Shown here: positions 32,781 to 64,000 of the stretch, piece after piece | Layout of the letters: each line of letters opens with the position of its first letter | How positions within the stretch are numbered: the stretch's first letter is position 1 | Assembly: GCF_964204645.1 (NCBI RefSeq) | Contig: NC_134032.1 | Location: 6,932,275-6,996,274, forward strand | Length of the DNA: 64,000 bases | Direction of reading: 5' to 3' | Source of the DNA: Tubulanus polymorphus | Lineage: Eukaryota; Animalia; Nemertea | Notes under the pieces: model-generated | What the model was told of the DNA's origin: nothing | Databases searched by the model: none | Seen by the model: only the letters and a program-made list of their open reading frames with translations | Translations under genes and position numbers: made by a program

Positions 32781-34355
32781 TTTATTAGCTTTTGAATAAT
32801 TAGGCCAATTAATAACGTAATAAAGACTTATGCTTTCGCCTATTTTGAAGTCGATTAATCTGATATAGTACGGAAGCGATAAAGGGCCTCGAGTTGTCGC
32901 GTTCAAACTCGACAAGTCGCCATATTTATGTCGATATATCGCGATATATCGCGTCAAGTCCACATGAATATGTCTACAATCGTGACGTTTTCACAACAAA
33001 TTTCGCTTTTTTGCTCATTTTCCACGGGACAAGCCGTCATTTGAAGACATGTCTAAATGTAAGATGAGGGCGCTAGTAATATGACGACTGAGTTTCAAGT
33101 CGTCATGAATATGTCGACTTGTCGCGAGAAAAATGGTCGAGAAAACGAAATATGTCGTCAAAACGTCACAATATATCGACATATTCATGTCGACTTGACG
33201 CAATATATCGCGGTATGTCGACATAAATATGGCGACTTGTCGAGTTGGAACGCGACATCTCGAGGCCCCTTATCGCTTCTTTAGCTTTTGAATAATTAGG
33301 CCAATTAATAACGTAATAAAGACTTATGCTTTCGCCTATTTTGAAGTCGATTAATCTGATATAGTACGGAAGTGATAAAGGGCCTCGAGTTGTCGCGTTC
33401 AAACTCGACAAGTCGCCATATTTATGTCGATATATCGCGATATGTCGCATCAAGTCAACATAAATATGTTGACATATCGTGCTGTTTGACGACTTGAAAC
33501 TCAGTCGTCATATCACTGGCGTCCTCATCTTTCAGCAACGCCAGTCACATGGAGTCGCACGTGTTCTACTTTCTGCGACGCGACACGACTGTCACAACCA
33601 ACCGACGCGCTCTTGCGACTGGCAGAAACTATTTGCACACAATCGTATTGCAACCGACTTGCACCGAAACTTGCGGTGCAACGCAAGGATCGCCTCGTGT
33701 CACAAGACCAACTTACGTCTGGATTTAAGTTACTGCGGAGCACCAGAAATATTTTTTTTTTCGTTCAAAAGACCTTTCGCTTGAAAATTCTTTCGTCGGA
33801 ACAAAATTTATTTCGTTCGAACCAATAATATTCTATACGATTGAACCAATTTGAAAAAATCGTAAGAACAAAGTTGAACAAACTTTTTTTTGTCCAAACG
33901 AAAGGTTTTTCGTTCGAACAATCGTTCAATTGAACAGAATCTTTTTTAATTTGAACAGAATTTTCTTGTCAGAACATTAAGTTTTTCGTTCGAACAAGTA
34001 TATTGAAAAAAGTTTTTTCTCCGAACCGAAAGTATGAACTATTTCGTTCAATCGAACAGAATTGTTTTCATTCAAACATTCGTTTGAAAAAATTGTTTTC
34101 GCTCGACCAAATTTTTTTGCCGGGACTAAAAATTTTTCATTTCAACTATAACATAGCTTTTTATTTGAACACATTTTTTGTCAGAATGAAGAAAATTTTT
34201 GGTTCAAGCAAAAAGCGTATTGTTCGATCAAACAGAATTAGTTTCATTCGAACAAGATTTTCTTGTTGGAACATTAAGTTTTTTGGTCGAACAGCGTGTT
34301 AAGGTCGATTTGGAAATTTACTCGGTCTGGTATATGTTGGATTACTGTGTATGTT

Positions 34356-34474
34356 AGTAATTAGAAGATGGCGTTTTCATACCAGAGGACGAGAGGACGA
34401 GACACCACTCATCACCACAAGTAATTTTTGTTTTCCTACTCATCACCACAAGTAATTTTTTTTCCTTATAAATG
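34356..34474 (+). repeat. Left terminal inverted repeat
   Basis: Outer 74 bp identical to the reverse complement of 48103-48176; similarity continues to the pPolB ATG; two copies of ACTCATCACCACAAGTAATTTTT. Confidence 0.95.
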
Positions 34475-36915
34475 GGGGAGAATGAACACCAACCAGAAAA
34501 CAATAATGTCAATAAAAATCAATATTATTGTCAATATTGTAAAAAATACATCGATACATCTAATAAAACACGACATGAAAAAACTGCAAATCATATAAAA
34601 AATGTAATAGATTTTGAAACTCCAGAAAATTCCAATGAAAGAAAAGAACGATTAGAAAATATGAATGTGAATGAAATAAAATGTGAAGTTTGTGATGAAT
34701 TTATAACAAAAAGGAATTATAATAGACATCTCGAAACAGAAAAACACCATCAAAATTTGAGAAATAATGTTTTAGGAATAGATTATTTTGATGATAAACC
34801 TCAACAAGTAAAAGAATCAACTTCAAAAACTAAATCCATTTCAAATAAACCTTACATGGAAAATGTTAGAAATTATATTGATTCACTAGAAATAAAAGAT
34901 ACAATTGAAATCTTAGAAACATTACATAGTAACGTTGGTCCTGCAGCTATTATATTTAGATTTTTTAAAGGTACAACAATAGAAGATTATAGTAAATTTA
35001 ATGAAATAATAGAAAAAATACTAGATTTGATAACAGATGTTGAATATCCAAAAATTAGTATCTCTGGGAAAGTAAGTTTTTTAAAGTCAGAAGAAAAAAT
35101 GAATTATAATATTCAAACACACTCTGAAGAAATAATTTCAAAAACACAAATAAAAGAGAAGTTAGAAAAAATATTAAATGAATTTAAACGTCATATTGAA
35201 GAAAGATATTTTGAGGGTTCTGGCTTAACATTGAATGAAATTATATATTTAGATTTAAATGTTTATAATACAAAAAGGAATAAAACATCAAAAAGTAATA
35301 AAATGTTTAAAAATGATTCAAACTTTACAACAGAAAAGGATATGAAAGCATCAAGTTATATCAAATTACCGTTTACAACAAAAGCAGTAATAAATATTCA
35401 AAATGAAGATAATAAATGTTTTCTATGGTCAATTATTAGTTGTTTACACCAAACAGAAGATATGACGCATAGTTTTAGAATAACAAATTACCGGAAATAT
35501 GAAACATTATATAAAATTGATCAATATCCAGTAACTATAAAAATGATTCCTAAAATAGAAAAAATTAATAATTTAAAAATAAATGTATTCGAATTAATGC
35601 AATTACCAAAGACAAAAGGTGAAAATATTAAAGATTATACATTGGAAGCTTTATATTTAACAGAATATTATGATGACGAAAATGCTATAGATTTGTTATA
35701 TTATAAAAAAGATGAAAATGAACATTATATGTGGTTAAAACAAATTGATTTATTCTTTAGAACAGAAAGTGATTTTAACAACCATAAAATTTATCTATGT
35801 AGAAAATGTTTATCTAAATTTAGAACTGAGAATGCGTTACTAAAACATAAAGAATTATGTGATATTAAAGATTTTTGTAAATTAATAATGCCAGCAGAAA
35901 AAGATTATAAATTGAAATTTACTAATCATAAATTTAAAAATATTGTTCCATTTGTAATTTATGGGGATTTTGAATCATGGATGTTATGAAATCATCAGCA
36001 GTTTATAGAATACTTGTAAATAATCCTAAAGATTTTGCTATAGAATATAATGATGAATTCTATATTCATGCAATAGTGAAAAGTAATACTTCAACTAAAG
36101 AAAAAATAGTACCAGATTATATATTAAATTCAGAATATAATCTTAGAAAATGGTTCTTCATTGGGTTCTACGCAGCCGATGGTACTAAAAAATTTATAAA
36201 GAATAAAACGATAACCTTTGCACAGAAAGGAAAATGTGCAATAAGTGGGTTAAATGTGTTATGCAGTTCATTAGGCTTCAATATGAATATTGGATTGATT
36301 AAATCTAAACCAAATTGCTTTAATTTAAGGCATGTAGAAAAAGATTTAACTGAAGAAGTTAAAGATTTATTTGAAATATATAACCCAACTGACTATGTTT
36401 ATGATTTATCAACAGATGATGGAACATTCAATTCTGGGTTCCCATTAATCCAAAAAAATACTGACGCCTACATACTAAAAATCAAGACAAATGACATAAC
36501 AAAAGACTTAAAAACATTAAAACATTATTTTGATTTTAGCAATTATCCTAAAGATCATGAACTATTTAGCAATGATAATAAAAAGATTCCTGGTAAGTTT
36601 AAAGATGAATTAGGAGGTGATGAAATGATTGAATTTGTTGGGATAAGAAGTAAAATGTATAGTTACAGAACAAAAGATCATGAAGCTAAAAAGTTAAAAG
36701 GAATAACAAAACATGTGGTTGATAAACATATAGAATTTCAAGATTATATAAAGTGTTTATATAAATCAATTGTAATGAAACACAAGATGAATTGTTTAAG
36801 ATCAGAAGATCATGAGATGTACATTAATGAAGTTGAAAAAACTAGTTTAAATCCATTTGATGATAAAAGGCATATTTCAGATGATGGTATAAAAACATTA
36901 CCTTATGGTTATTAA
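34472..36915 (+). pseudogene. Protein-primed DNA polymerase B (pPolB) with a large internal deletion
   Basis: N part: two C2H2-type Zn fingers, EGSG, NEDNKCFLWSI...HY (OTU-like protease module), Exo I YGDFES. C part: TDAYIL (motif C half), GKFKDE, RSKMY, KLKGI, LNPFDDKR, TLPYGY. Most of the exonuclease and motifs A and B are missing; junction at ~35975. Confidence 0.92.
35974..36459 (+). mobile_element. C-terminal half of an intein with a LAGLIDADG homing endonuclease, inserted in pPolB motif C
   Basis: FFIGFYAADG (36154-36183), block F YVYDLST, terminal LIQKN (Asn codon 36457-36459) followed by +1 Thr-Asp. Confidence 0.85.
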
Positions 36916-38209
36916 AATGGATCTATATCATCAAACTCGAAATCACTATTGGCTTCTTCATTTTCATTTAATTGTTCAGGTTCTTCTTCCATTCCATTTT
37001 TCTCATTTAAATAAAGTTCTATCTTGTTCCACATTTCATCTCGCTCTCTTTGTTTCTTTTTGTTTGTTAATTCATCAAATGGAATTATAATATCTAGGTT
37101 TAAATAATTTACAATCTTATTTAAAAAGAATTCATAATTTATTGAATCTGTTATTCTATTTTCCAAATAATACATAAATATTTGTTTAAATATTTTTTTT
37201 ATATTTTCCATATCTTCTTCTGTTAATTTAGGTTTTTCATAATAATCGTTAGATAATAAATATAAATACATTTTCTTTTGTTTTGTGTTAAATGTTGGTG
37301 GAATAATTGTTTTTATAATATCTTTTTTAGTTATTTCACCATTTTTATTTTCTATTATTTTCATTTTTTCAAGCCATTGCATATATTCTGGTGTATGATC
37401 TTCTATAGAAAATATTTTAAAAATTTCATCTAGATAATTTAATTTTGGTTCTATGAGAAAATCTCTAGTTTTTTCTTCACCCCATAAATTCTTTTGCCAT
37501 CCACATTCAACACAAAATAACACAGTACCTTCTTGCCTTAAGGTCGCATAACTACATTGTGGGCATTTTTGTTTATAATTTCTTGGTAATAGATCTTCAT
37601 TAAGCTCTTGGTATTTTCTTACGTTTTCTTTATGTTTTATTGTTCTATTATGTAGATTTGAATTACTTGTTGTAATAATCAATTTACAATATTTACAATA
37701 ATATGTTTTTCTTGTTAATTCATTATATTGTTTTTCTAACTTTTCAACTGTTTCTTTATTATCTGGTAACGTTTTCTCATATTTTATTTTTTCTAATAAA
37801 TTATTTTTTCTTTCATTGAATTCAGTTTCAAATTTATTAGAAATTTTATCTATATGTGCTTTACGAAATTGATGATTCTCCCAATCTTCTATATTTTCAG
37901 GGCTATATTTTACTTGACAAGGCTCACAGAATGATCTTTTATATTATCCTTATCATAGAATAAGAAAGGTCTTTTCCAAATAACTTCAGGTTCAACTTCA
38001 GCAGAATTACTATCAACATTAGCCGTTGCGCCATTAATTCTACACTTCTCTGAATGTTTTTTAACATAATTTCTTGAGAATAATTTATTACATTTTGGAC
38101 AGTTTATTTTAGGGGGTTTATAATTTTCATCATGTTTTTTCATATGTCGAGCCATATTACTTTTTCTTAGAAGTTCACCACAAATTTCGCATGCTATCTT
38201 CTCATCCAT
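36912..38209 (-). pseudogene. Multi-Zn-finger protein with a C-terminal poxvirus VLTF3 (A2)-like domain; one 1-nt frameshift at ~37944
   Basis: ORFs 37910-38209 and 36912-37682 join because the second frame is open up to 37943; four C2H2-type fingers, then Zn ribbon CPQC-x13-CVEC, PKLNYLDEIF, IKKIFKQIFMYYLEN...SINYEFFLNKI, EMWNKI. Confidence 0.75.
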
Positions 38210-38277
38210 TTATTAAGGAAAAATTTTATTAAAATTAATTTTTAGTGATGAGCGGTAATTTTTTTATGTTATAAATA

Positions 38278-39030
38278 ATGGTAGAATTAAAAGAATACAG
38301 AATATTTGTTGATTCTAGAAAACTTACAAATTATAAATCTCATAATTTACTAGTACAATTAGATAGAGAATTCAAGAATTGTGTAGATTTAAAATTAGTT
38401 AATATAAGTTTATGTAATTCTTTTTATAATATATCGGATAAAAGTCTAGAACATTTAATTTTTTCAATCTTTTACAAAAAAAGGAATAAATGGTTTTTTA
38501 TATACTTAAAACCAGGATTATATCATTTAGATACATTAACACAAGAAATTAATAGAAAAGCTCGAGCTAAATTAGGAAGTGATTCCGGATTTAGTATTAG
38601 AATTTTAAAAAGTGCTAGTTCTAATAAAATAAAGATTAGGTTAGCTAATGACGAACAATTTAAATTTACAATAGCTAAACTATTAGGAATTGCACCAGAT
38701 ACCGTTACAGCATACGCAGAAGGTAACTCAAACTCAAATATAATACCTTTTACACACTTTTATATTTATTGCAATTTAATCGATCCTACAAAAACATTTG
38801 AAGCAACTAAAGATACAATTTGTAATTCTGGTTTATTAAATATTTTACCATTAAAAAATGTCAAACAATTTGGAACTCAAATAAATTATAATTTAACTGA
38901 ATGTGATTTCAAACCTTGTATTCCACATTTCAATAATTCTAAATTAGAAATAAGAAATCATAATGGTTATTTAATTGATTTGAATAACTTTCCTGTAATT
39001 TATGAATTAGTTATAAGATGTAAAGAGTAA
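38278..39030 (+). CDS. Minor capsid (penton, single jelly-roll) protein
   Basis: IFVDSR N-terminus, LKPGLY, FYIYCNLI, LLNILP, LEIRNHNGYLIDLNNFPVIYELVIR, typical of Polinton minor capsid proteins. Confidence 0.8.
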   Translation: MVELKEYRIFVDSRKLTNYKSHNLLVQLDREFKNCVDLKLVNISLCNSFYNISDKSLEHLIFSIFYKKRNKWFFIYLKPGLYHLDTLTQEINRKARAKLGSDSGFSIRILKSASSNKIKIRLANDEQFKFTIAKLLGIAPDTVTAYAEGNSNSNIIPFTHFYIYCNLIDPTKTFEATKDTICNSGLLNILPLKNVKQFGTQINYNLTECDFKPCIPHFNNSKLEIRNHNGYLIDLNNFPVIYELVIRCKE

Positions 39031-40528: not shown

Positions 40529-41917
40529 ATGGTAGATAGGTTTCCAAAAGCTTTCCGATATAATAAATCAATTAAATATAATATTCCAGCAATAGATTTT
40601 AATAAAGATATTACATATAGAAATGAAGTTTTAGATTCATTAACTAATTTAGAAATTTATGTTACTGAAACTAATAATTTTAATGCAAAGATGGAAAATA
40701 TATTTCATATATATTTAATTAATTTTAAAAAATTGAAAGATGAAAAACAATGGTTATTAAAATCTAATATGAAGTATTGGCAGAACCAATTAAATTTTGC
40801 TTTTTATTGTGCAACAACAGGATGTGGAATTAGTTGGAATGATCATTTGAATAATTCTAAATATAAATTAATTCAAAGTTTATTTAGATTTCATACATAC
40901 TTTCAAATAAGAATAATATTAAATGAATTAGAGTGCGCTTTACCAGGATCTAGGTATTTCAAAGAATTAGATAATAATATTAATTTATCAAAGTTTTATA
41001 AAATTTGCAATGAATTTAATATAGATATAAATAATTCTGATTTTAGAACAAAAATTGGAACAATAAGATCACTTCCATGCCCTAGAAAGATTGCAGAATA
41101 TTGTGCACTTCCCATACCATCTAATAGCTTTTATAATATCTATAATAAAAAATTAGGTTATGGTAAAATAGAAACAAAAGATTTAGAAACATTAAATTTC
41201 AATAAATTACCAAAATTTTATGATAATTTAAAACAAGAAAACAATAATGGTTGGGTATATTTTATTTTAGAAAATAGTGAAGGTTTTACTAAATCAGGTA
41301 TAGAAAGAATAAATCAATCTATTGGAACTTATTTGATATGTATTCTAGGATCACAAGTTGAAACAAGATCACCGATAATTGGAAATTTGAATACATCATT
41401 TGATACACAAAAACAATTTAAAGTTTTATTTGAAGATTCAATTCATAATGATAAAAATAGATCGATTCCAGAAAACATTATAAGATATCAAAATTATTTA
41501 GATAAATCACATATTAGATTAAATTATTGTATAGGCCCTAATCTATTAATTATTTCTAATGATTTAGTATTAAAGATGGGAAATATAATTGGTTATAATA
41601 ATCTAATTAAAACTGCGACAATAAATAATTCATTTGGATTAAATGATATAAATAAAAAGATTATTACTGCTCCAAAATTAATGGAAGGTGAAAAAAATAA
41701 AAAACACATTCAATCAACTGAAACTAAAACTAAGAATATTAAATTGGATAATGATTTCAAAATAAAAGATTACAATACATCAGAAAATAATAGAACTGAT
41801 AAAATTCAACATGATATAATTAAACTAAATGATGATAATAAATCCCATGAAAATACTAAATTAGCTATAACTTGTATAGGAATTGTAATCGGAGAAATAT
41901 TATATTTTAAATTTTAA
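40529..41917 (+). CDS. Hypothetical 462-aa protein with C-terminal hydrophobic anchor
   Basis: Long intact ORF; motif YWQNQLNFAFYCATTGCGISW; function not recognised. Confidence 0.75.
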   Translation: MVDRFPKAFRYNKSIKYNIPAIDFNKDITYRNEVLDSLTNLEIYVTETNNFNAKMENIFHIYLINFKKLKDEKQWLLKSNMKYWQNQLNFAFYCATTGCGISWNDHLNNSKYKLIQSLFRFHTYFQIRIILNELECALPGSRYFKELDNNINLSKFYKICNEFNIDINNSDFRTKIGTIRSLPCPRKIAEYCALPIPSNSFYNIYNKKLGYGKIETKDLETLNFNKLPKFYDNLKQENNNGWVYFILENSEGFTKSGIERINQSIGTYLICILGSQVETRSPIIGNLNTSFDTQKQFKVLFEDSIHNDKNRSIPENIIRYQNYLDKSHIRLNYCIGPNLLIISNDLVLKMGNIIGYNNLIKTATINNSFGLNDINKKIITAPKLMEGEKNKKHIQSTETKTKNIKLDNDFKIKDYNTSENNRTDKIQHDIIKLNDDNKSHENTKLAITCIGIVIGEILYFKF

Positions 41918-43407: not shown

Positions 43408-44655
43408 ATGAGTGGGAGTTATAGAAGTCCTTCAAAGATTTCTAGAATATCTAATGCTATTAAAGCAGAAAGATCACATCATATAATTACTCATAACCCT
43501 TCAAATATTAATCCCGATGAAACTTTATATGTTAGAATCCCTCGATTAACACAAAATACTTTTTATGTTCCAAATAGTATTTATTTATCAGCTGATATAA
43601 AAGTAACTGGCCATGATAACAATTATGTTGTTGATAATGTTGGAAGATATTTGATTAAAAAATTAACTATAAAGATTGGTCCGGAAACAGTTTTCTCATT
43701 AGATGATTATAATTTATTTATGTATTATAAAGATTTATGGTTAACTAAAGAAAATAGAAATAATATGATATTTCAAGGCATCCAATCGGAAAACCATAAT
43801 AAATTAAGATCTGAAGCCAATAATGCAGTAGTAACTCGTGCCACAGATAATTTGATTAAAAAGATTTATGGAAGCAAATATAAAATTCCATTAGACTTTG
43901 AATTGATAAATAATAATGCACCTTTATATAAATACGCAATTCAAGAAGATATTATATTTGAGATAACATTTGCTCCTGTAAATGAAATTGTATTATCTAG
44001 CGTTGTTAAAGATATGGGTTATAAATTATCGAATATATGTTTAGAATATAACACAGTAACTAATGAAAATATTGCTAGCACAATTCAAACTCAATACAAT
44101 CAAGGATCTTCATTATTATATGATTATATTGATAAATTTAAAACTGTAACTATTAATGCAAATGATGAAATAATTAATGAGAATATTAACTTTCCTAGAA
44201 GATCTATTAAAGGTATATTAATATTTTTTACTATTGCAACATATTCTAATGGCGCAATAAATGTTGATAATTATTATAATCCTGAAATAACAAAAGTAGA
44301 AATAACTATCGAAGGAATAGCAAATAAAATATTTTGCCAAGGAATGAGAATGATAAACCAATGGCCAGAAATTAGAAAACATTTTATGAATGAAAAAGTA
44401 AAATCATTTGAAAATTGTAACATTAATCAAATTGATTATTATACCGGTAATAAATATGCATTATGGTTAGATTTTAGAACAACAGAGGATAATTCATTAC
44501 ATGGTTCTGGGAAAAAACTACAAAATACAAAAGATGGAATACAATTATTCATGAAAAAGAAAAAAGGAAGCTTAAATTTTAAAATGCATATTTATATTAT
44601 ATCTGACGCACAATTAAATATTGTAAATTCTCAATTAGATAGTATTCAATATTAG
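43408..44655 (+). CDS. Major capsid protein (double jelly-roll)
   Basis: 415 aa, beta-rich; NPSNINPDETLYVRIP, KYKIPLDF, IIFEITFA, NINFPRRSIKGILIFF, YALWLDFRT; size and position fit an MCP. Confidence 0.8.
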   Translation: MSGSYRSPSKISRISNAIKAERSHHIITHNPSNINPDETLYVRIPRLTQNTFYVPNSIYLSADIKVTGHDNNYVVDNVGRYLIKKLTIKIGPETVFSLDDYNLFMYYKDLWLTKENRNNMIFQGIQSENHNKLRSEANNAVVTRATDNLIKKIYGSKYKIPLDFELINNNAPLYKYAIQEDIIFEITFAPVNEIVLSSVVKDMGYKLSNICLEYNTVTNENIASTIQTQYNQGSSLLYDYIDKFKTVTINANDEIINENINFPRRSIKGILIFFTIATYSNGAINVDNYYNPEITKVEITIEGIANKIFCQGMRMINQWPEIRKHFMNEKVKSFENCNINQIDYYTGNKYALWLDFRTTEDNSLHGSGKKLQNTKDGIQLFMKKKKGSLNFKMHIYIISDAQLNIVNSQLDSIQY

Positions 44656-44685: not shown

Positions 44686-45813
44686 ATGAGTGGTAAAAAA
44701 ACTCCTAATACTAAAGAACAATATTTAAGAAATTTATATTACAACCCTGAGAGTTCGGTTGCTTATTCTTCTACTAAAAATATATGGCGTAAAGTAAAAC
44801 AAGATAAATTAGATAAGATAATCCCACAAAATTTAGTTAAATATAAAGATATAAATGAATTTATGTTAGAACAACCAACGTATACAACACATAAAAAAAT
44901 TGTTAGAAAATATAAAACTCGTAAAACTATGGTAAGTTATGTAGATCAACAGTGGCAAGGAGATTTAATTGATATGAAAAATGTTAAGAAAGATAATGAT
45001 GATTATTGGTGGTTATTGAATATAATTGATATTTTTAGTCGTTATGTATGGAGTTTCCCACTTTATAGAAAAGATGCTGTACAAACATCAAATGTTTTAA
45101 GAAAATTTCTTTCAGGTGGTAAACTAAAACCAGAAAAAATTCAATTTGATGATGGAAAAGAATTTGATAATTCATTAGTTCATGGACTTTTAGATTTTCA
45201 TAATATTAAATATTTTTCGACAAAATCGGATAAAAAAGCAGCAGTTGTTGAACGATTTAATAGAACATTGAGAACAAGAATGTCAAAATATTTCACAGCA
45301 AATAATACTTATAAATGGATTGATGTTTTACCAAAATTTATAGAAGGATATAATAATTCTTATCATTCTTCTATTGGAATGAAACCTATTGATGCTAGAA
45401 AACCTGAAAATGCTGAAATTGTTTGGAATAATTTATATGGAGCATTTCTTGTTGATGATTTTGGTGAACCTAAATTTAAAGTTGGTCAAAATGTTAGAAT
45501 TTCTAAGTATAAAAAGATATTTGACAAAGGATACGATCGAAATTTTACTAGAGAAATATACAAAATAAAAAAGGTAATAACAACAAAACCATATGTCTAT
45601 AAATTAGAAGATTTAGATGGTGAAGAAGTTGATGGCTACTTTTACGAAGAAGAATTAAGTTTAACTACTGAAAATCTAGAACAAGAATATAAAATTGAAA
45701 AAGTACTAAAAACAAAAACTGTTAAAAGAAAAAAATATTCTTTAGTGAAATGGGTTGGATGGCCAGATAAATTCAATGAATGGATATTATCAAGTAAAAT
45801 TAAAAATATATAA
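44686..45813 (+). CDS. Retroviral-like (rve) integrase with C-terminal chromodomain
   Basis: WQGDLIDM, IDIFSRY, QFDDGKEF, VERFNRT (DDE); YKIEKVL...VKWVGWPDKFNEWI. Confidence 0.95.
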   Translation: MSGKKTPNTKEQYLRNLYYNPESSVAYSSTKNIWRKVKQDKLDKIIPQNLVKYKDINEFMLEQPTYTTHKKIVRKYKTRKTMVSYVDQQWQGDLIDMKNVKKDNDDYWWLLNIIDIFSRYVWSFPLYRKDAVQTSNVLRKFLSGGKLKPEKIQFDDGKEFDNSLVHGLLDFHNIKYFSTKSDKKAAVVERFNRTLRTRMSKYFTANNTYKWIDVLPKFIEGYNNSYHSSIGMKPIDARKPENAEIVWNNLYGAFLVDDFGEPKFKVGQNVRISKYKKIFDKGYDRNFTREIYKIKKVITTKPYVYKLEDLDGEEVDGYFYEEELSLTTENLEQEYKIEKVLKTKTVKRKKYSLVKWVGWPDKFNEWILSSKIKNI

Positions 45814-46418
45814 ATGAATAAGGAATTATTTATATTTGAGCCTCATAATATGTTAATTTCTGGTGTAACAAATTGTGGAAAAACTTATTTTATATTAAAT
45901 TTATTAGAAACTGTTTATGAAAACTATTTTGATAATATAGTATTATTTTGTCCAACATATGAATTTAATCAAACTTATGATAGAAATATTACTAGAAATA
46001 ATAAATTTATTATATTAGATCCTAAAACAGTAAAAGAAAATTTAGATAATTGTATAAAAATAGCAATTGATATTTATAAAGGATCAAATACATTATTTAT
46101 CATAGATGATTGTGCAAATTTACATGATTCTAAAATTAGAGAAAGCGAGTTATGTTATTTAGCTTTCTCTGGAAGACATTTTGGGATAACAACTTGGGTT
46201 TTAAATCAAAAATATAATTCAATTGTTAAAGATTTTAGAGAAAACATTAGATTTCTAGTTTTATTCTACAATATAGAAAATCGATGAAAAATGCACTTGA
46301 GGAAAATGATATTATTCCATATGATTTACATAATGAATATATGGATAAGTTGAAAAATATTAAAAGATCAAAATTACTATTTAGATTACAACACCCATTT
46401 AAATATGAATTTATTTAA
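45814..46418 (+). pseudogene. A32/FtsK-like genome packaging ATPase; frameshift near 46270
   Basis: Walker A GVTNCGKT, Walker B FIIDD, SGRH, NQKY; an alternative frame (RKSMKNALEEND...) runs to TAA at 46416-46418. Confidence 0.9.
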
Positions 46419-46714: not shown

Positions 46715-47319
46715 ATGGGAGGTGAAAAGAAAATAAAATCTAAAAATGGTGATGTTCCAATTGAAAAAACTTTAGATGATTTAGGAATAACAGAAACAAA
46801 ATTAACTCCAGATGATGGTGCTTTAAATATTGTTACAACAAATAATAATTATGAATATTATCTTTATTGTAAACATCAATTAGAAATATTAATAGCATCT
46901 GGAAAATGTAAAAATTTTATCGGTAAAAATTTAACTTATAATGAATTAGACACAATGAAATCAGATGAAATTATTAGATTATTTAAGATTTATGAAGCCG
47001 CGAGAACAGCTAAAATCAATGACGCGATATCAGAAAATGTAGTAAAAGGTTATAGTAAATTATGTAATTATATACTACCAATTGAAGATGAAAATAGATT
47101 ATATTCCGAATTAAAAAATGATTATTTAGTTATGACTGAATTAAATAAGTGGATTGGATATTTATCATTCAATTAGGTGGATTTATGACATTATTATCAA
47201 CCGGGGTTATAACATTTTCAAATATTGAAAGTAAAAATATTTCTATAATAAATGAGCGAAGTGAAAGAAGTGAAGGAATTAACTGTGAAGAAAAAACCGA
47301 GAACTCAGAAACAAATTGA
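46715..47319 (+). pseudogene. Conserved hypothetical protein (homologue of 62776-63378); 1-nt deletion at ~47170
   Basis: Shares IEKTLDDLGI, YEYYLYCKH, LKNDYLVMTEL; restoring TTT CAA TTA GGT gives ~201 aa, matching the 200-aa homologue. Confidence 0.85.
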
Positions 47320-47733: not shown

Positions 47734-48060
47734 TTAATCAACAATTTCTAAATCATGATGACCGTCTTCATTTTTCCCATGATATATTATTTTAAATCCT
47801 ACTAAATCTTTCAATTCCTCCGTACTCAATGAAACCCATTTATCGGGTAAAAACACTTTAAATTCTCGCGATGTACTAACATTACAGTAGCTTAAATTAG
47901 CTAATACTTTCTCTCCATATTTAGTTTTTATCTTTTCTAATTTCAATATTTTATGTTCAATTTCTTTTGTAACATCAACTAACTTTTTTATTTCAAATTG
48001 TTTTTTTGCTGGTTTTATTCTGTTATTTATTGTTGCTAAGAATGCTTTTCTATCTCCCAT
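47734..48060 (-). CDS. Small protein starting inside the right TIR, possibly an OB-fold ssDNA-binding protein
   Basis: 108 aa; KTKYGEKVL...KVFLP; ATAAATG start; function is inference. Confidence 0.65.
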   Translation of the reverse strand: MGDRKAFLATINNRIKPAKKQFEIKKLVDVTKEIEHKILKLEKIKTKYGEKVLANLSYCNVSTSREFKVFLPDKWVSLSTEELKDLVGFKIIYHGKNEDGHHDLEIVD

Positions 48061-48176
48061 TTATTAGGAAAAAAAATTACTTGTGGTGATGAGTGTTAGG
48101 AAAAAAATTACTTGTGGTGATGAGTGGTGTCTCGTCCTCTCGTCCTCTGGTATGAAAACGCCATCTTCTAATTACT
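48058..48176 (-). repeat. Right terminal inverted repeat
   Basis: Reverse complement of 34356-34474. Confidence 0.95.
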
Positions 48177-49509
48177 TATGTTATTTGTCAGGACATTAAA
48201 CAGAAGACAACTTAGGATAGACCTTGCGTGACTCCACTAGTCCGACTTATTCCAAGATGAGGCGTTCCGTTGATTTCGGTTACAAGTTTCCGTTCAGAGA
48301 TAACTGCTGAGCCATTTGGGCGACTTATCATTGATACTGTTTCCTTAATAGCCTGTTTAGTAATGGCTGATGTTGTGCCTTATCAAATGCTTCGTCGAAA
48401 TCCACCGTTGAACAGGATTCTAAGACTGTGCAGAAAACCCGTTATCGCTGCTTTGCAGCTATATTTATTATTATTTTCTTCCACACTATTTTTACCAAAA
48501 GAACATAGGCTTTGTTACATTACCGCTGTTTCATATACAATCCATTTAATATCGTTCAGCTCACTGAGATCTACAAATAGCCCGCGTGTTTTTTCACGAA
48601 TCATCGTTACAAAAGCGCTGTCGGGCCGTAAACATCGAAAATTTAACCCCATTTAATGGGGCGACATGTTTTTCGAGTCGTCATCCCGAAATCAACCCGT
48701 AGGCCGACTGTCACTTCGATTATCAATTCAAGTATAAATGAACTAATTTATTGCCGCAGACTTCACATTCAGTCGCGGTCTTCAAACAGTGATTTTAACA
48801 ATAGCCCATTTTCCTCATCAAATCATATTACCGATACACTGGAAATTTACTACTTTAGATTTTAAAAGCACTGTCGAGCCGTAAACATCGACGAATCGAC
48901 GTGTGTTACTACATCGTCGTTCCGGGGATCAGCTGCGAGTTTCTCCTCACCATGAGAATCAAATCGAGTACAAATTAATTTATAACTACCAGTGATTTGG
49001 CTGCGGGCGTCAAGCAGTTAGTTTAGCAATACCTATTTTTCTTTACCAAATTAACCGTGTATTTACTAAGATAAATCATAAGTGTAACGGGGAGTCGTAG
49101 GCCTAAACTAAACAAGAGATATAACGGAGAAAAGCTGTTATGTCGACGAGGTATCAAAATAAAGAAATATATTACTTTATTCGGCCGCGGGCTTCAACCT
49201 CTATATCAATACCATCAATACTCTGTATTTCCTACAGTACATACCGATCATTGTCAAATCCACAAGGTATTTACTAAATACAAGTATACAACACACTCCT
49301 ATCCGTAGGCTGGACTCACACTTGACATTCGGAGTAAGCGTTCGCTGCGGAGGAAAGGAGATCGTTCGCTGTGTCGCTTGAAGTGTTTATCGAGTTTTAC
49401 GCGACCTTAAGGCTTAAGTATGGTGGCTGATACGATAAAAAACACGAATATGCAAATGAGGGCGACATTACGACAAAACGACAAAACTAAAATAACGCGA
49501 GAAAACAAT

Positions 49510-60278: not shown

Positions 60279-60358
60279 CTTAAAATATTCATATATATGA
60301 ATAACATTTAAATCATTGAACTTCTAAAATCAATTTTAATAAAAAATATAGTATTAAA

Positions 60359-60685
60359 ATGGAAGCAAATAAGTACTACTGCCCAACATGTAATATCGAT
60401 ATAGATAAATCCCAAAAAGCAAGACACAATAAAACTAGAACACATTTAGAGAATAAATTGAAACTAGAATATTTACAGTTATATTCAGAACAGTTAACAA
60501 AGGGAAAGAAATTTATTGAATTATAGAATAATGATCCAAATAATGAACAATACGTTGAGGAATTTGATATCAAGGAATCGAAACAACTTATCAAAAGCAG
60601 CGAGGAATGAAAAAGGATGACGTTGGTCGAAGAAATGGAAGAGGATTCTAAAATGTTAACCAATTTAGTAAAAAAATACGTATAA
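60359..60685 (+). pseudogene. C2H2 Zn-finger protein with two in-frame stops
   Basis: YYCPTCNIDIDKSQKARHNKTRTH, similar to the first finger of element-1 pPolB. Confidence 0.65.
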
Positions 60686-60688
60686 TAA

Positions 60689-61339
60689 ATGGAACCAGAA
60701 CAACCACAAATTATCAATATTACAAATAACACTGGCGTTATAAACATATACTACAAGAAGTGTTCTAAATGTGAATTAGATAAATCATTAACAGAATTTA
60801 GTAAGCGTAAGATTAGCAAAGATGGTTTTCAATATTGCTGTAAAACTTGTTTTAAACTATACACCAAACAATACCGAGAAGATAATATAGAACATTATAA
60901 TTATTATATGGCAGAATATATGAGAGAAAGATATCAAACAGATCTTAATTTTAGATTGAAACAATGTTTACGGTCTAGATTAACACAATTATTCAATAAA
61001 GAAACACATTCAGAAACATTATCTAATTTATTGGGTTGTTCAGATGAATTTCTCATATCATGGATAATATATCAATTCGATGATAAAATGAATATAGATA
61101 ATTATGAGGAATACTTTCATATTGATCATGTGTTGCCGATTTCTAAATTTAACATGAATGATGAATACAATAAAAAACTTATTTGGGGTTGGAGAAATTT
61201 AAGGCCTCTTGAAAAGAAAGAAAACATAATTAAATCTAATAAACTAGATATACAGTTATATTTAGATCAACTGGATAAAGCAAAGACATTTGTTGAATTA
61301 TGGAATTCAACACATAATGAAAAATACGTTGAATGTTAA
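60689..61339 (+). CDS. HNH-family endonuclease (giant-virus type) with N-terminal Zn ribbon
   Basis: KKCSKC...KDG...CKTC; FHIDHVLPIS...WRNLRPL...NIIKSNK. Confidence 0.8.
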   Translation: MEPEQPQIINITNNTGVINIYYKKCSKCELDKSLTEFSKRKISKDGFQYCCKTCFKLYTKQYREDNIEHYNYYMAEYMRERYQTDLNFRLKQCLRSRLTQLFNKETHSETLSNLLGCSDEFLISWIIYQFDDKMNIDNYEEYFHIDHVLPISKFNMNDEYNKKLIWGWRNLRPLEKKENIIKSNKLDIQLYLDQLDKAKTFVELWNSTHNEKYVEC

Positions 61340-61733
61340 ACGCTTAGAAAACCGGTTACTCTCGATCTATGTCAAACCGCCTATATTTAATTGTATTAGG
61401 TTGTTTACAAAAACATCTGCGCCGTATTTCATATTCAGTTGAATGGGGCGCACCTCATTTGAATATTGATCGAACGTGCTATTTCAGTTGAAAAGGATTA
61501 ATCAATTATATTACAAAAGAAGGAACATCTGTTGCACCAGATGGTGTTAAGCTAGTGAATAACTACCAGTTATAAACGCGCAGCACATAAGCATAGGAAC
61601 GTATTGGATATTCTCTCTCAAAACACAGTTTACAGTTCTAAATCTAAATGTAAGTAAATATATTATGAAGTAGGGAAACCTTTAAACATATTTAAGTACA
61701 GTAATTCATTTTCACGATATCTTTTAGATTAAA

Positions 61734-62006
61734 ATGGAACACAAAGATCGACCAGAAATTCTAAGCCAACCAACGTATGAGGAACCAGAAACGATAGATA
61801 GTGAAACTCAGGAATCAATAGAAATGGAGGATGAAACTCTCGTAATTGACGAACAAACTTCACAAACATTACAAGAACATTTGGACTATCATCAAGAAAT
61901 GGTGAAAATTCTGAGTGATGTAATACATAATAAACAATTACCGCGCGAACTACAATTACCAAAATTACCAGCAACGCGACTTAAATTGCTGTTGGGACTC
62001 AAATAA
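61734..62006 (+). CDS. Hypothetical acidic protein
   Basis: 90-aa ORF with TTAAAATG start, inside element 2. Confidence 0.4.
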   Translation: MEHKDRPEILSQPTYEEPETIDSETQESIEMEDETLVIDEQTSQTLQEHLDYHQEMVKILSDVIHNKQLPRELQLPKLPATRLKLLLGLK

Positions 62007-62460
62007 TCGAGAACTAAGAAAAAGAACATAGATATCAGTGCCGGTTTTGAAAGAAAACTGAGAAGAGTAGGTAGATTAATAAAATATGAAAAATTCAAAA
62101 TATTAGGATTAGCATTTAGTGAAGTAGTAAGACATTTACCAGAAATTGAAGAAATGATTGGAAACAATCCAGTAATTAAAGAATTCTGGACAAAATTATA
62201 AATTATAATACTGAAGGTCTTTGTAATATAGATATCAAAAAATGTAATCTCGATTGTATATATCTGTTTTAATATTGTATTGTTTACTGTTAACTAAGTA
62301 TTGCGCAATAACCGGTCCGATTGAACCGCTTTTCTATTGTTCTCCATTGTTCTATTATCGATCGCTAAAATTTACATAATAAATATATGTGTTTATGAAA
62401 TTAGATTTCCACCAGTCGTTTCTTTGAATTTATTTTCAGTTTGAGGATTTATTATCGAGG

Positions 62461-62529
62461 ATCCGAAATGACTTATCTGGACAGTTATAATTACTGCTCC
62501 TAATAGATAGACAATAGTAGTGAGATATT
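62461..62529. ncRNA. Conserved structured non-coding element (copy 2)
   Basis: Reverse-complement match to 47627-47691. Confidence 0.55.
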
Positions 62530-62775
62530 AAATCCTAATTTAAATAAAATATAATAAAAAAACAATAACTTCAACTAGCTAGTCAATTCTATTATATTTT
62601 CAATATTTTCTTTTGGTAATTCTAATTGACATTAGATTGAATAGATTTTGAATAGATTTGAATAGAAATTCTTTAACTTTAACTAACCTAGTCAATTTAG
62701 TATTAACCTAAAGAGATACTAGTATCATTTGAAGAATATTTATAATATTTTTTTTGCTTTTTTCCTCTAATATAA

Positions 62776-63378
62776 ATGTCAAAGAAATCTAATAAGAATA
62801 GTATTGATATTGAAAAAACATTAGATGATTTGGGTATTAGTGATAATAAAGATACAGTTGTTTCTAATTCTATTCAAGTTAATAACAATATAGATTATGA
62901 ATACTATTTATATTGTAAGCATCATATAGAACTATTGATTGCGAGTGGAAAAACTAAAGAGTTTATTGGTAAAACAATAACTTTTCAAGAATTAGATAAT
63001 ATGAATAAAGAAAAAGTAATAAAATATTTTAAGATTTATGAAGAAGCTCGATTAGCTAGAATAAATGATTCTATTTCAGATGGTATTGTAAAATGTTATT
63101 CTAAGTTATGTAACCAGTTAATACCAATTGATAATGAAAATAAATTATATAGTGATTTGAAAAATGACTACTTAGTTATGACTGAATTACAAAAATGGGT
63201 TGGATATGCTTCATTTCAATTAGGATCGGTTATGACATTGATTTCTACTGGCGTCATAACATTTTCGAATATCAAGCCTATGGAATATAAATCAGGTAAG
63301 AACGAAACAGATGTACTACAACCAAACAGTGAAACAGAAAATGAATCAGAACAAAAATTAACTAAAATAAATGAGTGA
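62776..63378 (+). CDS. Conserved hypothetical protein (homologue of 46715-47319)
   Basis: Intact 200-aa ORF with extensive identity to the element-1 gene; T-run plus TATAAATG start. Confidence 0.85.
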   Translation: MSKKSNKNSIDIEKTLDDLGISDNKDTVVSNSIQVNNNIDYEYYLYCKHHIELLIASGKTKEFIGKTITFQELDNMNKEKVIKYFKIYEEARLARINDSISDGIVKCYSKLCNQLIPIDNENKLYSDLKNDYLVMTELQKWVGYASFQLGSVMTLISTGVITFSNIKPMEYKSGKNETDVLQPNSETENESEQKLTKINE

Positions 63379-63769
63379 TGGAGTTAAGAAAAAGGCTAGA
63401 TCCGAGAAACAAATTAAATGGGCAAGAGAATTAGGTAAAAGATCATCAGAATTAAAAAAAGCTAAGAAAAAGAAATTAACTGATATAAATGAATCACAGA
63501 CTTTATCTGATGGTGCCGTACAGCACCCACACGGTGGTATTGATTCAAATAATAATCCATCTAATTCTTCTAATGCTGGAAGTAATTATAAATTATATAT
63601 TACAATTGGATTAGTAACAGTTATTATATTATCCGGTGTAATATATAAATCAAAATTCAAATCTGATGATAAAGATGATTCCAATGACAATCGGAAACAT
63701 ATTATACCAGAAAATAAGTCAAATCATAAAGTCATTGAAACTAAATCTAAATTATTATTAATGGATTAA
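63371..63769 (+). CDS. Basic N-terminus / single-TM protein (homologue of 47252-47623)
   Basis: RSEKQIKWARELG; TM LYITIGLVTVIILSGVIY. Confidence 0.8.
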   Translation: MSDGVKKKARSEKQIKWARELGKRSSELKKAKKKKLTDINESQTLSDGAVQHPHGGIDSNNNPSNSSNAGSNYKLYITIGLVTVIILSGVIYKSKFKSDDKDDSNDNRKHIIPENKSNHKVIETKSKLLLMD

Positions 63770-63775
63770 AATAAG

Positions 63776-64000
63776 ATGAAAAAAGAACAATATTTAAGAG
63801 ATTTATATTATAACCCAGAAAGTGAAGTATCATATTCTAACGTTTCAGAATTATGGAATAAAATTAAATCTGATAAAGAAAAAATAAAATATAGTGAATT
63901 AAAATCATGGTTACAAAATCAACCCACATATCAAATTCATAAAAAGATGGATAAAAAATATTTAACAAGAAAAGTAATGGTTTCATATATTGATCAACAA
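63776..64000 (+). CDS. rve integrase, N-terminal part (runs off the window)
   Basis: MKKEQYLRDLYYNPES...QPTYQIHK...TRKVMVSYIDQQ matches the 44686 integrase (KEQYLRNLYYNPES...TRKTMVSYVDQQ). Confidence 0.9.
   Translation, partial: MKKEQYLRDLYYNPESEVSYSNVSELWNKIKSDKEKIKYSELKSWLQNQPTYQIHKKMDKKYLTRKVMVSYIDQQ

Follow-up and report, generated by a model that had tools for sequence, protein, structure and literature searches.

The 64,000-nt stretch analyzed here (Tubulanus polymorphus, NC_134032.1, positions 6,932,275 to 6,996,274; hereafter the window) contains a 13.8-kb Polinton/Maverick element, and on the minus strand of this element lies a gene of about 430 codons (36912-38209) in which four zinc fingers precede a domain related to VLTF3, a late transcription factor of poxviruses (A2 of vaccinia virus). 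As judged from sequence, the C-terminal 216 aa of the product are a VLTF3 homologue, and the genes of the element carry late starts of the poxvirus type. We propose that the finger-extended VLTF3 would provide the element with a late initiation factor of its own, which works with the RNA polymerase of a putative co-infecting poxvirus-like helper, a reading to which we give slightly less than an even chance. The broader statement, that the element uses helper-type transcription whether the helper is a poxvirus or an unsampled relative, appears fairly probable by analogy with virophages.

The C-terminal part was assigned by profile, alignment and predicted fold. Pfam PF04947 matched the C-terminal 216 aa with 27.4 bits (E 3.2e-6, cut-off 25) and an 87-aa piece with 31.4 bits, as the first-pass annotation of this DNA had anticipated, and was missed on the 343-aa 3' piece of the gene and on the whole homologues P0030-P0032. 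Of the 30 matches in the Atlas, 28 were VLTF3 clusters (best 0.96); the recognition value, 1926, was low. The part consists of a C4 zinc ribbon (37503-37565, minus strand; C-x2-C-x13-C-x2-C), spaced as in poxvirus A2, and a helical VLTF3 domain (36990-37454, minus strand; PF04947) with a predicted cyclin-like fold. The match to vaccinia A2 had been proposed in the annotation and held for actual A2 sequences, named chordopoxvirus VLTF-3 proteins having been added to the comparison: the ribbon spacing is identical, the blocks are collinear across 216 aa, and the window protein ends in an acidic tail where A2 has its C-terminus. A degenerate pattern of ten window-protein residues recovered poxvirus A2 genes from IMG/VR; the 120 loci found were mostly out-of-frame chance matches, and poxvirus A2 frames alone were retained.

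The structure model built from a 36-row alignment showed a predicted local distance difference test score (pLDDT) of 85.9. The fold search with this model returned eight matches at E 0.001, led by an unnamed 278-aa viral protein and followed by poxviruses and then giant-virus proteins. Ranks 2-4 were taken by cowpox VLTF3 (TM-score 0.69) and two entomopoxvirus VLTF3s, in agreement with the fold expected for the domain, and B385R of African swine fever virus stood at rank 24. An alignment-free model was poor (pLDDT 48) and placed three poxvirus VLTF3s first among the VLTF3s, with matches that were not significant. Among solved structures, the list was led by TFIIB chains (yeast TFIIB: Z 7.3, root-mean-square deviation 3.3, 94 residues aligned), with other cyclin folds next, and neither sequence searches of the PDB nor Foldseek on the PDB gave a match at E 0.001.

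Next, the affinity of the domain to poxvirus and giant-virus VLTF3 was compared. With a profile built from the window domain plus three homologues, all 28 poxvirus rows scored 30-53 bits (median 49.6) and the 26 giant-virus rows 3-39 bits (median 14.0, best 38.6). In the reverse direction, the window domain scored 41.8 with the poxvirus profile and 21.9 with the giant-virus profile, and shuffled sequences reached at most 7.7. The HH probabilities of the family profile to the poxvirus and giant-virus groups were 97.6 and 95.2, respectively, and that of the two groups to each other was 32.0. In trees of 41 and 23 rows, thinned from 58 (the latter without P0032, a long branch), the branch that separates the giant-virus rows left the VLTF3 family on the poxvirus side (100/96, 100/97), and approximately unbiased (AU) tests rejected joining of the family to L124 (p 0.019), P0033 (p 0.004) and L125 with P0033 (p 0.005). 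Path lengths from the family to both groups were similar, and the trees indicate no donor because they hold three groups and no root. In summary, the domain appears poxvirus-leaning, since profile scores and fold ranks place it nearer to poxvirus A2 than to the sampled giant-virus VLTF3s; derivation from poxviruses or membership of Poxviridae goes beyond this evidence.

A single frameshift breaks the reading frame of the window copy within 37910-37943, a zone shared by two minus-strand frames: a 99-aa 5' piece that begins at the ATG at 38209, and a 3' piece of 343 aa that runs from stop to stop and ends at 36912. In the raw reads of run X5, which carries the same species label and derives from another sample, 159 of 220 reads showed a one-base length difference in this overlap zone at 85% likeness, and 144 of 187 did so at the stricter 90%. 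The contig depth carrying the difference was 74.9 of 74.9 in X2, 211 of 229 in X3 and 4,659 of 13,332 in X1. The other length variants between copies within the gene (15, 12 and 3 bases) sum to whole codons. The frameshift is present in the window sequence, where it inactivates the gene, and most copies in the species differ at the break zone and are unbroken at that spot. The annotation had ascribed the break to a single missing A at about 37944; the one-base difference stands, and the reads mark another spot within the zone. It arose by mutation of the window copy or by assembly error, and the decay of this copy agrees with mutation.

Because the reads differ at the break and homologues carry both pieces in one frame, the two pieces belong to a single fused gene, and two separate genes are ruled out. 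The pieces were aligned and searched separately throughout. The 5' piece matched residues 10-65 and 186-205 of P0030 and the 3' piece residues 210-548, in the same order and within one open reading frame (ORF); in P0031, the four fingers, the ribbon and the helical domain likewise share a single frame. As side observations, read depth at 38277-38400 rises about threefold where a 250-aa gene starts, 343 reads carry a different sequence upstream of 38277, and 108 reads depart at 36887. In related subfamilies, the gene in the place of VLTF3 may be another one or may have diverged further.

A full HMMER search of 1.84 billion representatives yielded four proteins at E 0.001: P0030 (697 aa, 46-49% identity), P0031 (446 aa, 34-38%), P0032 (281 aa, 31%) and P0033, a giant-virus-type fragment. 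Two further proteins, P0034 and P0035, are about 46% identical to the window protein and keep the fusion as in P0030. Homologues of 34-46% identity retain the cysteines of the ribbon and the helices of the core. On L206, the contig of P0030, the VLTF3 gene lies tail to tail with an intact polymerase gene, the layout and promoters are kept, and the terminal sequence beside those genes is 93% like the window terminal repeat over 28 nt. P0031 (L207, 243-1583) contains two in-frame copies of one short peptide repeat, the first in the linker that precedes finger 4 and the other close to the C-terminus; it may be a small repeat that was inserted. When the window protein was used as query, word-indexed searches for homologues retained 0 of 878 and 0 of 142 candidates; tblastn on phages, a prokaryote genome search and scans of viral contigs with the VLTF3 domain, the capsid, the integrase and P0035 found nothing, and NCBIfam gave no useful match.

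All fingers and motifs quoted in the annotation were found in the translation. Finger 1 (38132-38191, minus strand) is a classical C2H2 finger (C-x2-C-x12-H-x3-H; zf-C2H2 E 5.5e-5, under cut-off), and finger 2 (38042-38101, minus strand) is of the C2HC form (C-x2-C-x11-H-x3-C); together they are 48% identical to P0030. Finger 3 (37854-37928, minus strand; C-x2-C-x14-H-x5-H) is a C2H2 finger with the H-x5-H spacing of the matrin/JAZ type, and its counterpart in P0031 matched zf-C2H2_jaz over cut-off. Finger 4 (37632-37697, minus strand; C-x2-C-x11-H-x5-H) is of the U1/matrin type (zf-U1 E 7.4e-7, over cut-off), and its match to the RNA-binding protein ZFa in the PDB sequence search (E 0.0019) fell short of E 0.001. 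By sequence type, fingers 3 and 4 fall in the U1/JAZ class known for RNA binding. Fingers 1 and 2 alone are adjacent, and fingers 3 and 4 are separated by 52 residues; this spacing and the U1/JAZ type of fingers 3 and 4 rule out a Kruppel-type tandem C2H2 array that reads DNA.

The fingers appear to come from the element's own stock, shared with its polymerase: finger 4 is 41% identical over 39 aa to the first N-terminal finger of the polymerase (DNA likeness 72% over 47 nt), and finger 1 is 40% identical to the second. A candidate finger site is the 8-base CTCATCAC box, which occurs five times in the 64 kb against 0.99 expected: each terminal repeat has two copies, and the fifth lies upstream of the VLTF3 gene (38245-38252, minus strand), the only window copy outside the terminal repeats.

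The start of the VLTF3 gene (38207-38235, minus strand) is late-type, with a T run followed by TAAATG across the start codon. For the whole element, 15 starts were taken as the first ATG of each frame of at least 60 aa, except for the internal piece of the polymerase and an antisense frame that is nested. TAAATG was present at 14 of the 15 starts and at 29 of the 504 other ATGs in the element, a T ten bases upstream of TAAAT at 14 of 15 and 177 of 504, and TAAATG plus a T5 run at 10 and 1, respectively. Late promoters of vaccinia virus are described by these two features, TAAAT over the start and a T ten bases upstream (PMC11980589). When a mechanical ORF rule was applied, TAAATG with the upstream T was found at 10 of the element's 14 starts, at 2 of 4 in a second element of the window and at 2 of 3 in L206 and L207; the counts were 32 of 234 for poxvirus loci (all gene classes mixed), 5 of 182 for giant-virus loci (5 of 85 for the AT-rich ones) and 0 of 15 for host flanks, the viral-set rows being related to one another. 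TAAATG alone was present at all three starts in L206 and L207. These counts suggest that the element genes carry poxvirus-type late starts.

Stop-start coupling was rejected as the cause of TAAATG, as it applies to the integrase-ATPase pair alone among the 14 starts. Separately, TTTTTNT, the poxvirus early termination signal, occurred in the eight long frames between 34472 and 45813 five times on coding strands and 63 times on opposite strands; the A richness of the coding strands may explain this bias.

The proposed mechanism would run as follows. The element would be silent until a putative helper sets up its factory, and the helper late machinery would first read the element promoters, that of the VLTF3 gene among them. 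The ribbon and cyclin-like domain would then take the place of A2 in the helper late initiation complex, in a TFIIB-like manner, and the fingers, which share their stock with the fingers of the end-bound element polymerase, would keep the factor on element nucleic acid. The helper polymerase would thus be drawn to the element genes in a feed-forward manner and at the helper's expense. The first-pass annotation had suggested that the fingers could retarget a helper polymerase to the element's promoters or act as a dominant negative on the helper; the late-type promoters of the element genes lend independent support to the idea of a helper polymerase, which stays at the tentative level given above. 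In virophages, the sharing of late promoters with a giant virus is accepted as indicating transcription by the helper (PMC10945749).

A number of observations weigh against this proposal. The helper is putative, and its role is deduced from the virophage analogy. The VLTF3 gene cannot start the cascade, because its own start is late-type. Identity to A2 is only 19-22%, and the A2L zinc ribbon profile PF08792, which scored 51.6 bits on vaccinia A2, gave no match in the window protein up to E 10. The family branches outside the sampled poxvirus rows (99/98, 100/99), and an AU test rejected its union with the divergent poxvirus row L245 (p 0.013); a place inside Poxviridae, for which the annotation had suggested a phylogeny, was accordingly not borne out among the sampled poxviruses (chordopoxviruses and L245). 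The trees themselves are unrooted, have long branches that meet, and were built without entomopoxvirus, asfarvirus, egovirus and Polinton-like virus (PLV) VLTF3s, and the rows outside the family that came closest by path belonged to giant viruses in the 23-row tree (4.2) and to poxviruses in the 41-row tree.

Further points of this kind concern the fold, the fingers and the copies. As many as 18 of the 36 alignment rows behind the structure model are poxvirus rows, which may bias the fold ranking, and the predicted TFIIB match is middling, with Z below 8 and cyclins scoring alike. Fingers 3 and 4 resemble RNA-binding fingers and are widely spaced, P0032 is a relative without fingers, and the CTCATCAC box was not seen upstream of the L206 polymerase gene. 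Differences between copies were spread evenly over the codon positions (6/8/8, n=22; 22 of 171 difference rows, from 40 listed, inside the gene and mostly well supported), giving no sign of selection among copies.

Three other explanations were considered. In the first, which we regard as unlikely, the element depends on a helper and the protein is a decoy or dominant negative that binds late factors or late RNAs of the helper, shuts its late genes and protects the host cell population instead of raising transcription of the element. The strong divergence from A2, the acidic tail replacing its C-terminus and the RNA-binding type of the fingers would suit such a role, and virophages are described as lowering helper output (PMC10945749); all element genes have late-type starts, however, so that a general block of late initiation would silence the element too, and the ribbon cysteines and core helices kept across the homologues also speak against a decoy. 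Slightly less likely, the helper would be an unsampled large cytoplasmic DNA virus other than a poxvirus whose late starts are similar, and VLTF3 would be an old inheritance of this Polinton lineage instead of a capture from Poxviridae. VLTF3 has been reported in PLV clusters (10.64898/2026.06.19.733378), and this view would fit a family that lies outside the sampled poxviruses, about equidistant by path, with a profile nearer to both groups than these are to each other and an unnamed viral protein as its top fold match. Profile scores and fold ranks nevertheless favor poxviruses, and the start motif agrees with the vaccinia late consensus in both features. Least probable is an autonomous nuclear element whose VLTF3 works alongside host RNA polymerase II, in the manner of TFIIB, on a uniform element promoter, the motif likeness being a relic or AT-rich convergence: the integrase, the many chromosomal copies, the TFIIB-like predicted fold and the 18% TAAATG in AT-rich giant-virus loci, which are not poxviruses, speak for it, whereas TAAATG stands at 79-93% of the element starts, and a promoter over the start codon leaves no templated 5' leader, a poxvirus late trait that is unusual for polymerase II.

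The proposal that the finger-extended VLTF3 initiates late transcription by a helper polymerase has a wider form, in which this animal Polinton family would consist of endogenous poxvirus virophages, chromosomally silent and induced by the helper through late promoters and a finger-tethered late factor; we consider this possible and rather doubtful. If true, it would be an animal counterpart of the inducible antiviral defence by endogenous mavirus-like elements (EMALEs), and the first such parasite to bring a re-targeted subunit of its helper's initiation complex. For animal Polintons, which lack an RNA polymerase, the uniform late start on almost all genes of this element and its poxvirus-like factor would point to a candidate class of helper, and the helper question becomes testable by promoter reporters. 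The family would also form a third, well-diverged VLTF3 branch and a profile link between poxvirus A2 and giant-virus VLTF3, and would support an architecture like that of TFIIB for a core factor that is poorly understood.

The element is an integrated Polinton/Maverick, as indicated by its terminal repeats, target duplication, rve integrase and A32-type ATPase. It forms a low-GC island (GC 23.6% against 36% in the flanks) bounded by terminal inverted repeats of 124 nt (34356-34479, plus strand; 48053-48176, minus strand), which are mutually 94% complementary, and by a 6-bp target duplication, TATGTT, at 34350-34355 and 48177-48182. The empty site, which lies within a host repeat, was seen in 2,237 reads connecting 34349 directly to 48177. 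Contigs of three further runs covered almost none of the element, which is no evidence on its expression. In the flanks, Pfam recognized a rhodopsin-family receptor and remnants of piggyBac and Bel/Pao, and a cluster of inverted repeats of 50-120 nt at 32873-33534 likely represents small foldback elements.

A putative protein-primed DNA polymerase gene in two pieces (34472-36915, plus strand) lies tail to tail with the VLTF3 gene and has a large internal deletion and a homing-endonuclease/intein-like remnant; L206 has an intact ORF of 1336 aa, with which the two pieces share 66% and 82% identity. Both are presumably family B polymerases, a label taken from motifs, Pfam having given no call. 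About 160 additional residues at 35977-36460 (plus strand), with a LAGLIDADG-like domain (E 0.0096), stand just before the polymerase resumes its L206 match at a catalytic motif; the insertion is absent from L206 and is likely the 3' half of an intein, and inteins or homing-type insertions in Polinton polymerases have already been noted (PMC11161782). On the plus strand there follow a 462-aa gene (40529-41917) with no Pfam, NCBIfam or Atlas match, a putative major capsid protein (43408-44655; Capsid_N E 0.0077, under cut-off), a retroviral-type integrase with chromodomain (44686-45813; rve over cut-off, Chromo E 2e-4) and an A32-type packaging ATPase (45814-46287; Pox_A32 E 6e-13), the frame of which stops early. 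Private indels, the shortened ATPase frame and the large polymerase deletion agree with a window copy in decay.

Pfam gave no match to an adenovirus-type maturation protease and recognized no RNA polymerase, VLTF1 or VLTF2 in the 17 element frames, a weak negative as it also missed the whole frames of VLTF3 and the polymerase. The second low-GC Polinton-like element (60300-64000, plus strand), which runs off the window end, contains a small finger ORF, an HNH-like ORF, a 200-aa ORF 61% identical to 46715-47176 of the main element, and an integrase start, and has TAAATG at three of its four long ORF starts.

The presence of VLTF3 within Polintons is already known. Krupovic and Koonin (2016) are reportedly cited for VLTF3 in polintoviruses. 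The annotation had placed VLTF3 outside the usual Polinton gene set, which is true, yet a subgroup of animal polintoviruses from stony corals is published as having it (PMC11131425). As in the window element, a VLTF3 homologue in a Polinton-type genome is described for these, for MELD viruses, where it is called mimivirus-like (PMC8502044), and for PLV clusters (10.64898/2026.06.19.733378); the main-text passages, supplements excluded, mention no finger fusion, poxvirus affinity or promoter motif. VLTF2/3 are still treated as diagnostic of Nucleocytoviricota (PMC11253617), and gene transfer from large viruses to Polintons has been reported for KilA (10.1101/2024.03.23.586382). In titles and abstracts among the matches listed, pox-type promoters in animal Polintons and the finger-VLTF3 fusion were not found in print, supplements excluded; annotation tables of the coral, adintovirus and entomopoxvirus papers may bear on this.

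Compared with vaccinia A2, the window protein shares the ribbon spacing, the collinear helical domain and the predicted fold, and differs, at 19-22% identity, by four N-terminal fingers, the acidic tail and the missing PF08792 match. Its gene sits in a 13.8-kb integrated element, its family lies outside the sampled poxvirus clade, and its start is late-type, whereas A2L is classed as intermediate (PMC11980589). Another related system is the PLVs present in entomopoxvirus occlusion bodies, which have small Polinton-like genomes and have been proposed to live in animals as parasites of a poxvirus (PMC11296320). These have a protease and a tyrosine recombinase or no integrase, in contrast to the rve integrase of the window element, and the terms "promoter", "TAAAT" and "transcription factor" are absent from the main text of that paper by term count. 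Mavirus and the endogenous EMALEs of Cafeteria resemble the window element in being integrated, in their rve integrase and in the late promoter that their genes share with a large cytoplasmic virus (PMC10945749). The window element, known from its sequence, differs from them in its animal host, its poxvirus-type motif and its own late factor, and for EMALE04 reactivation has been shown (PMC10945749).

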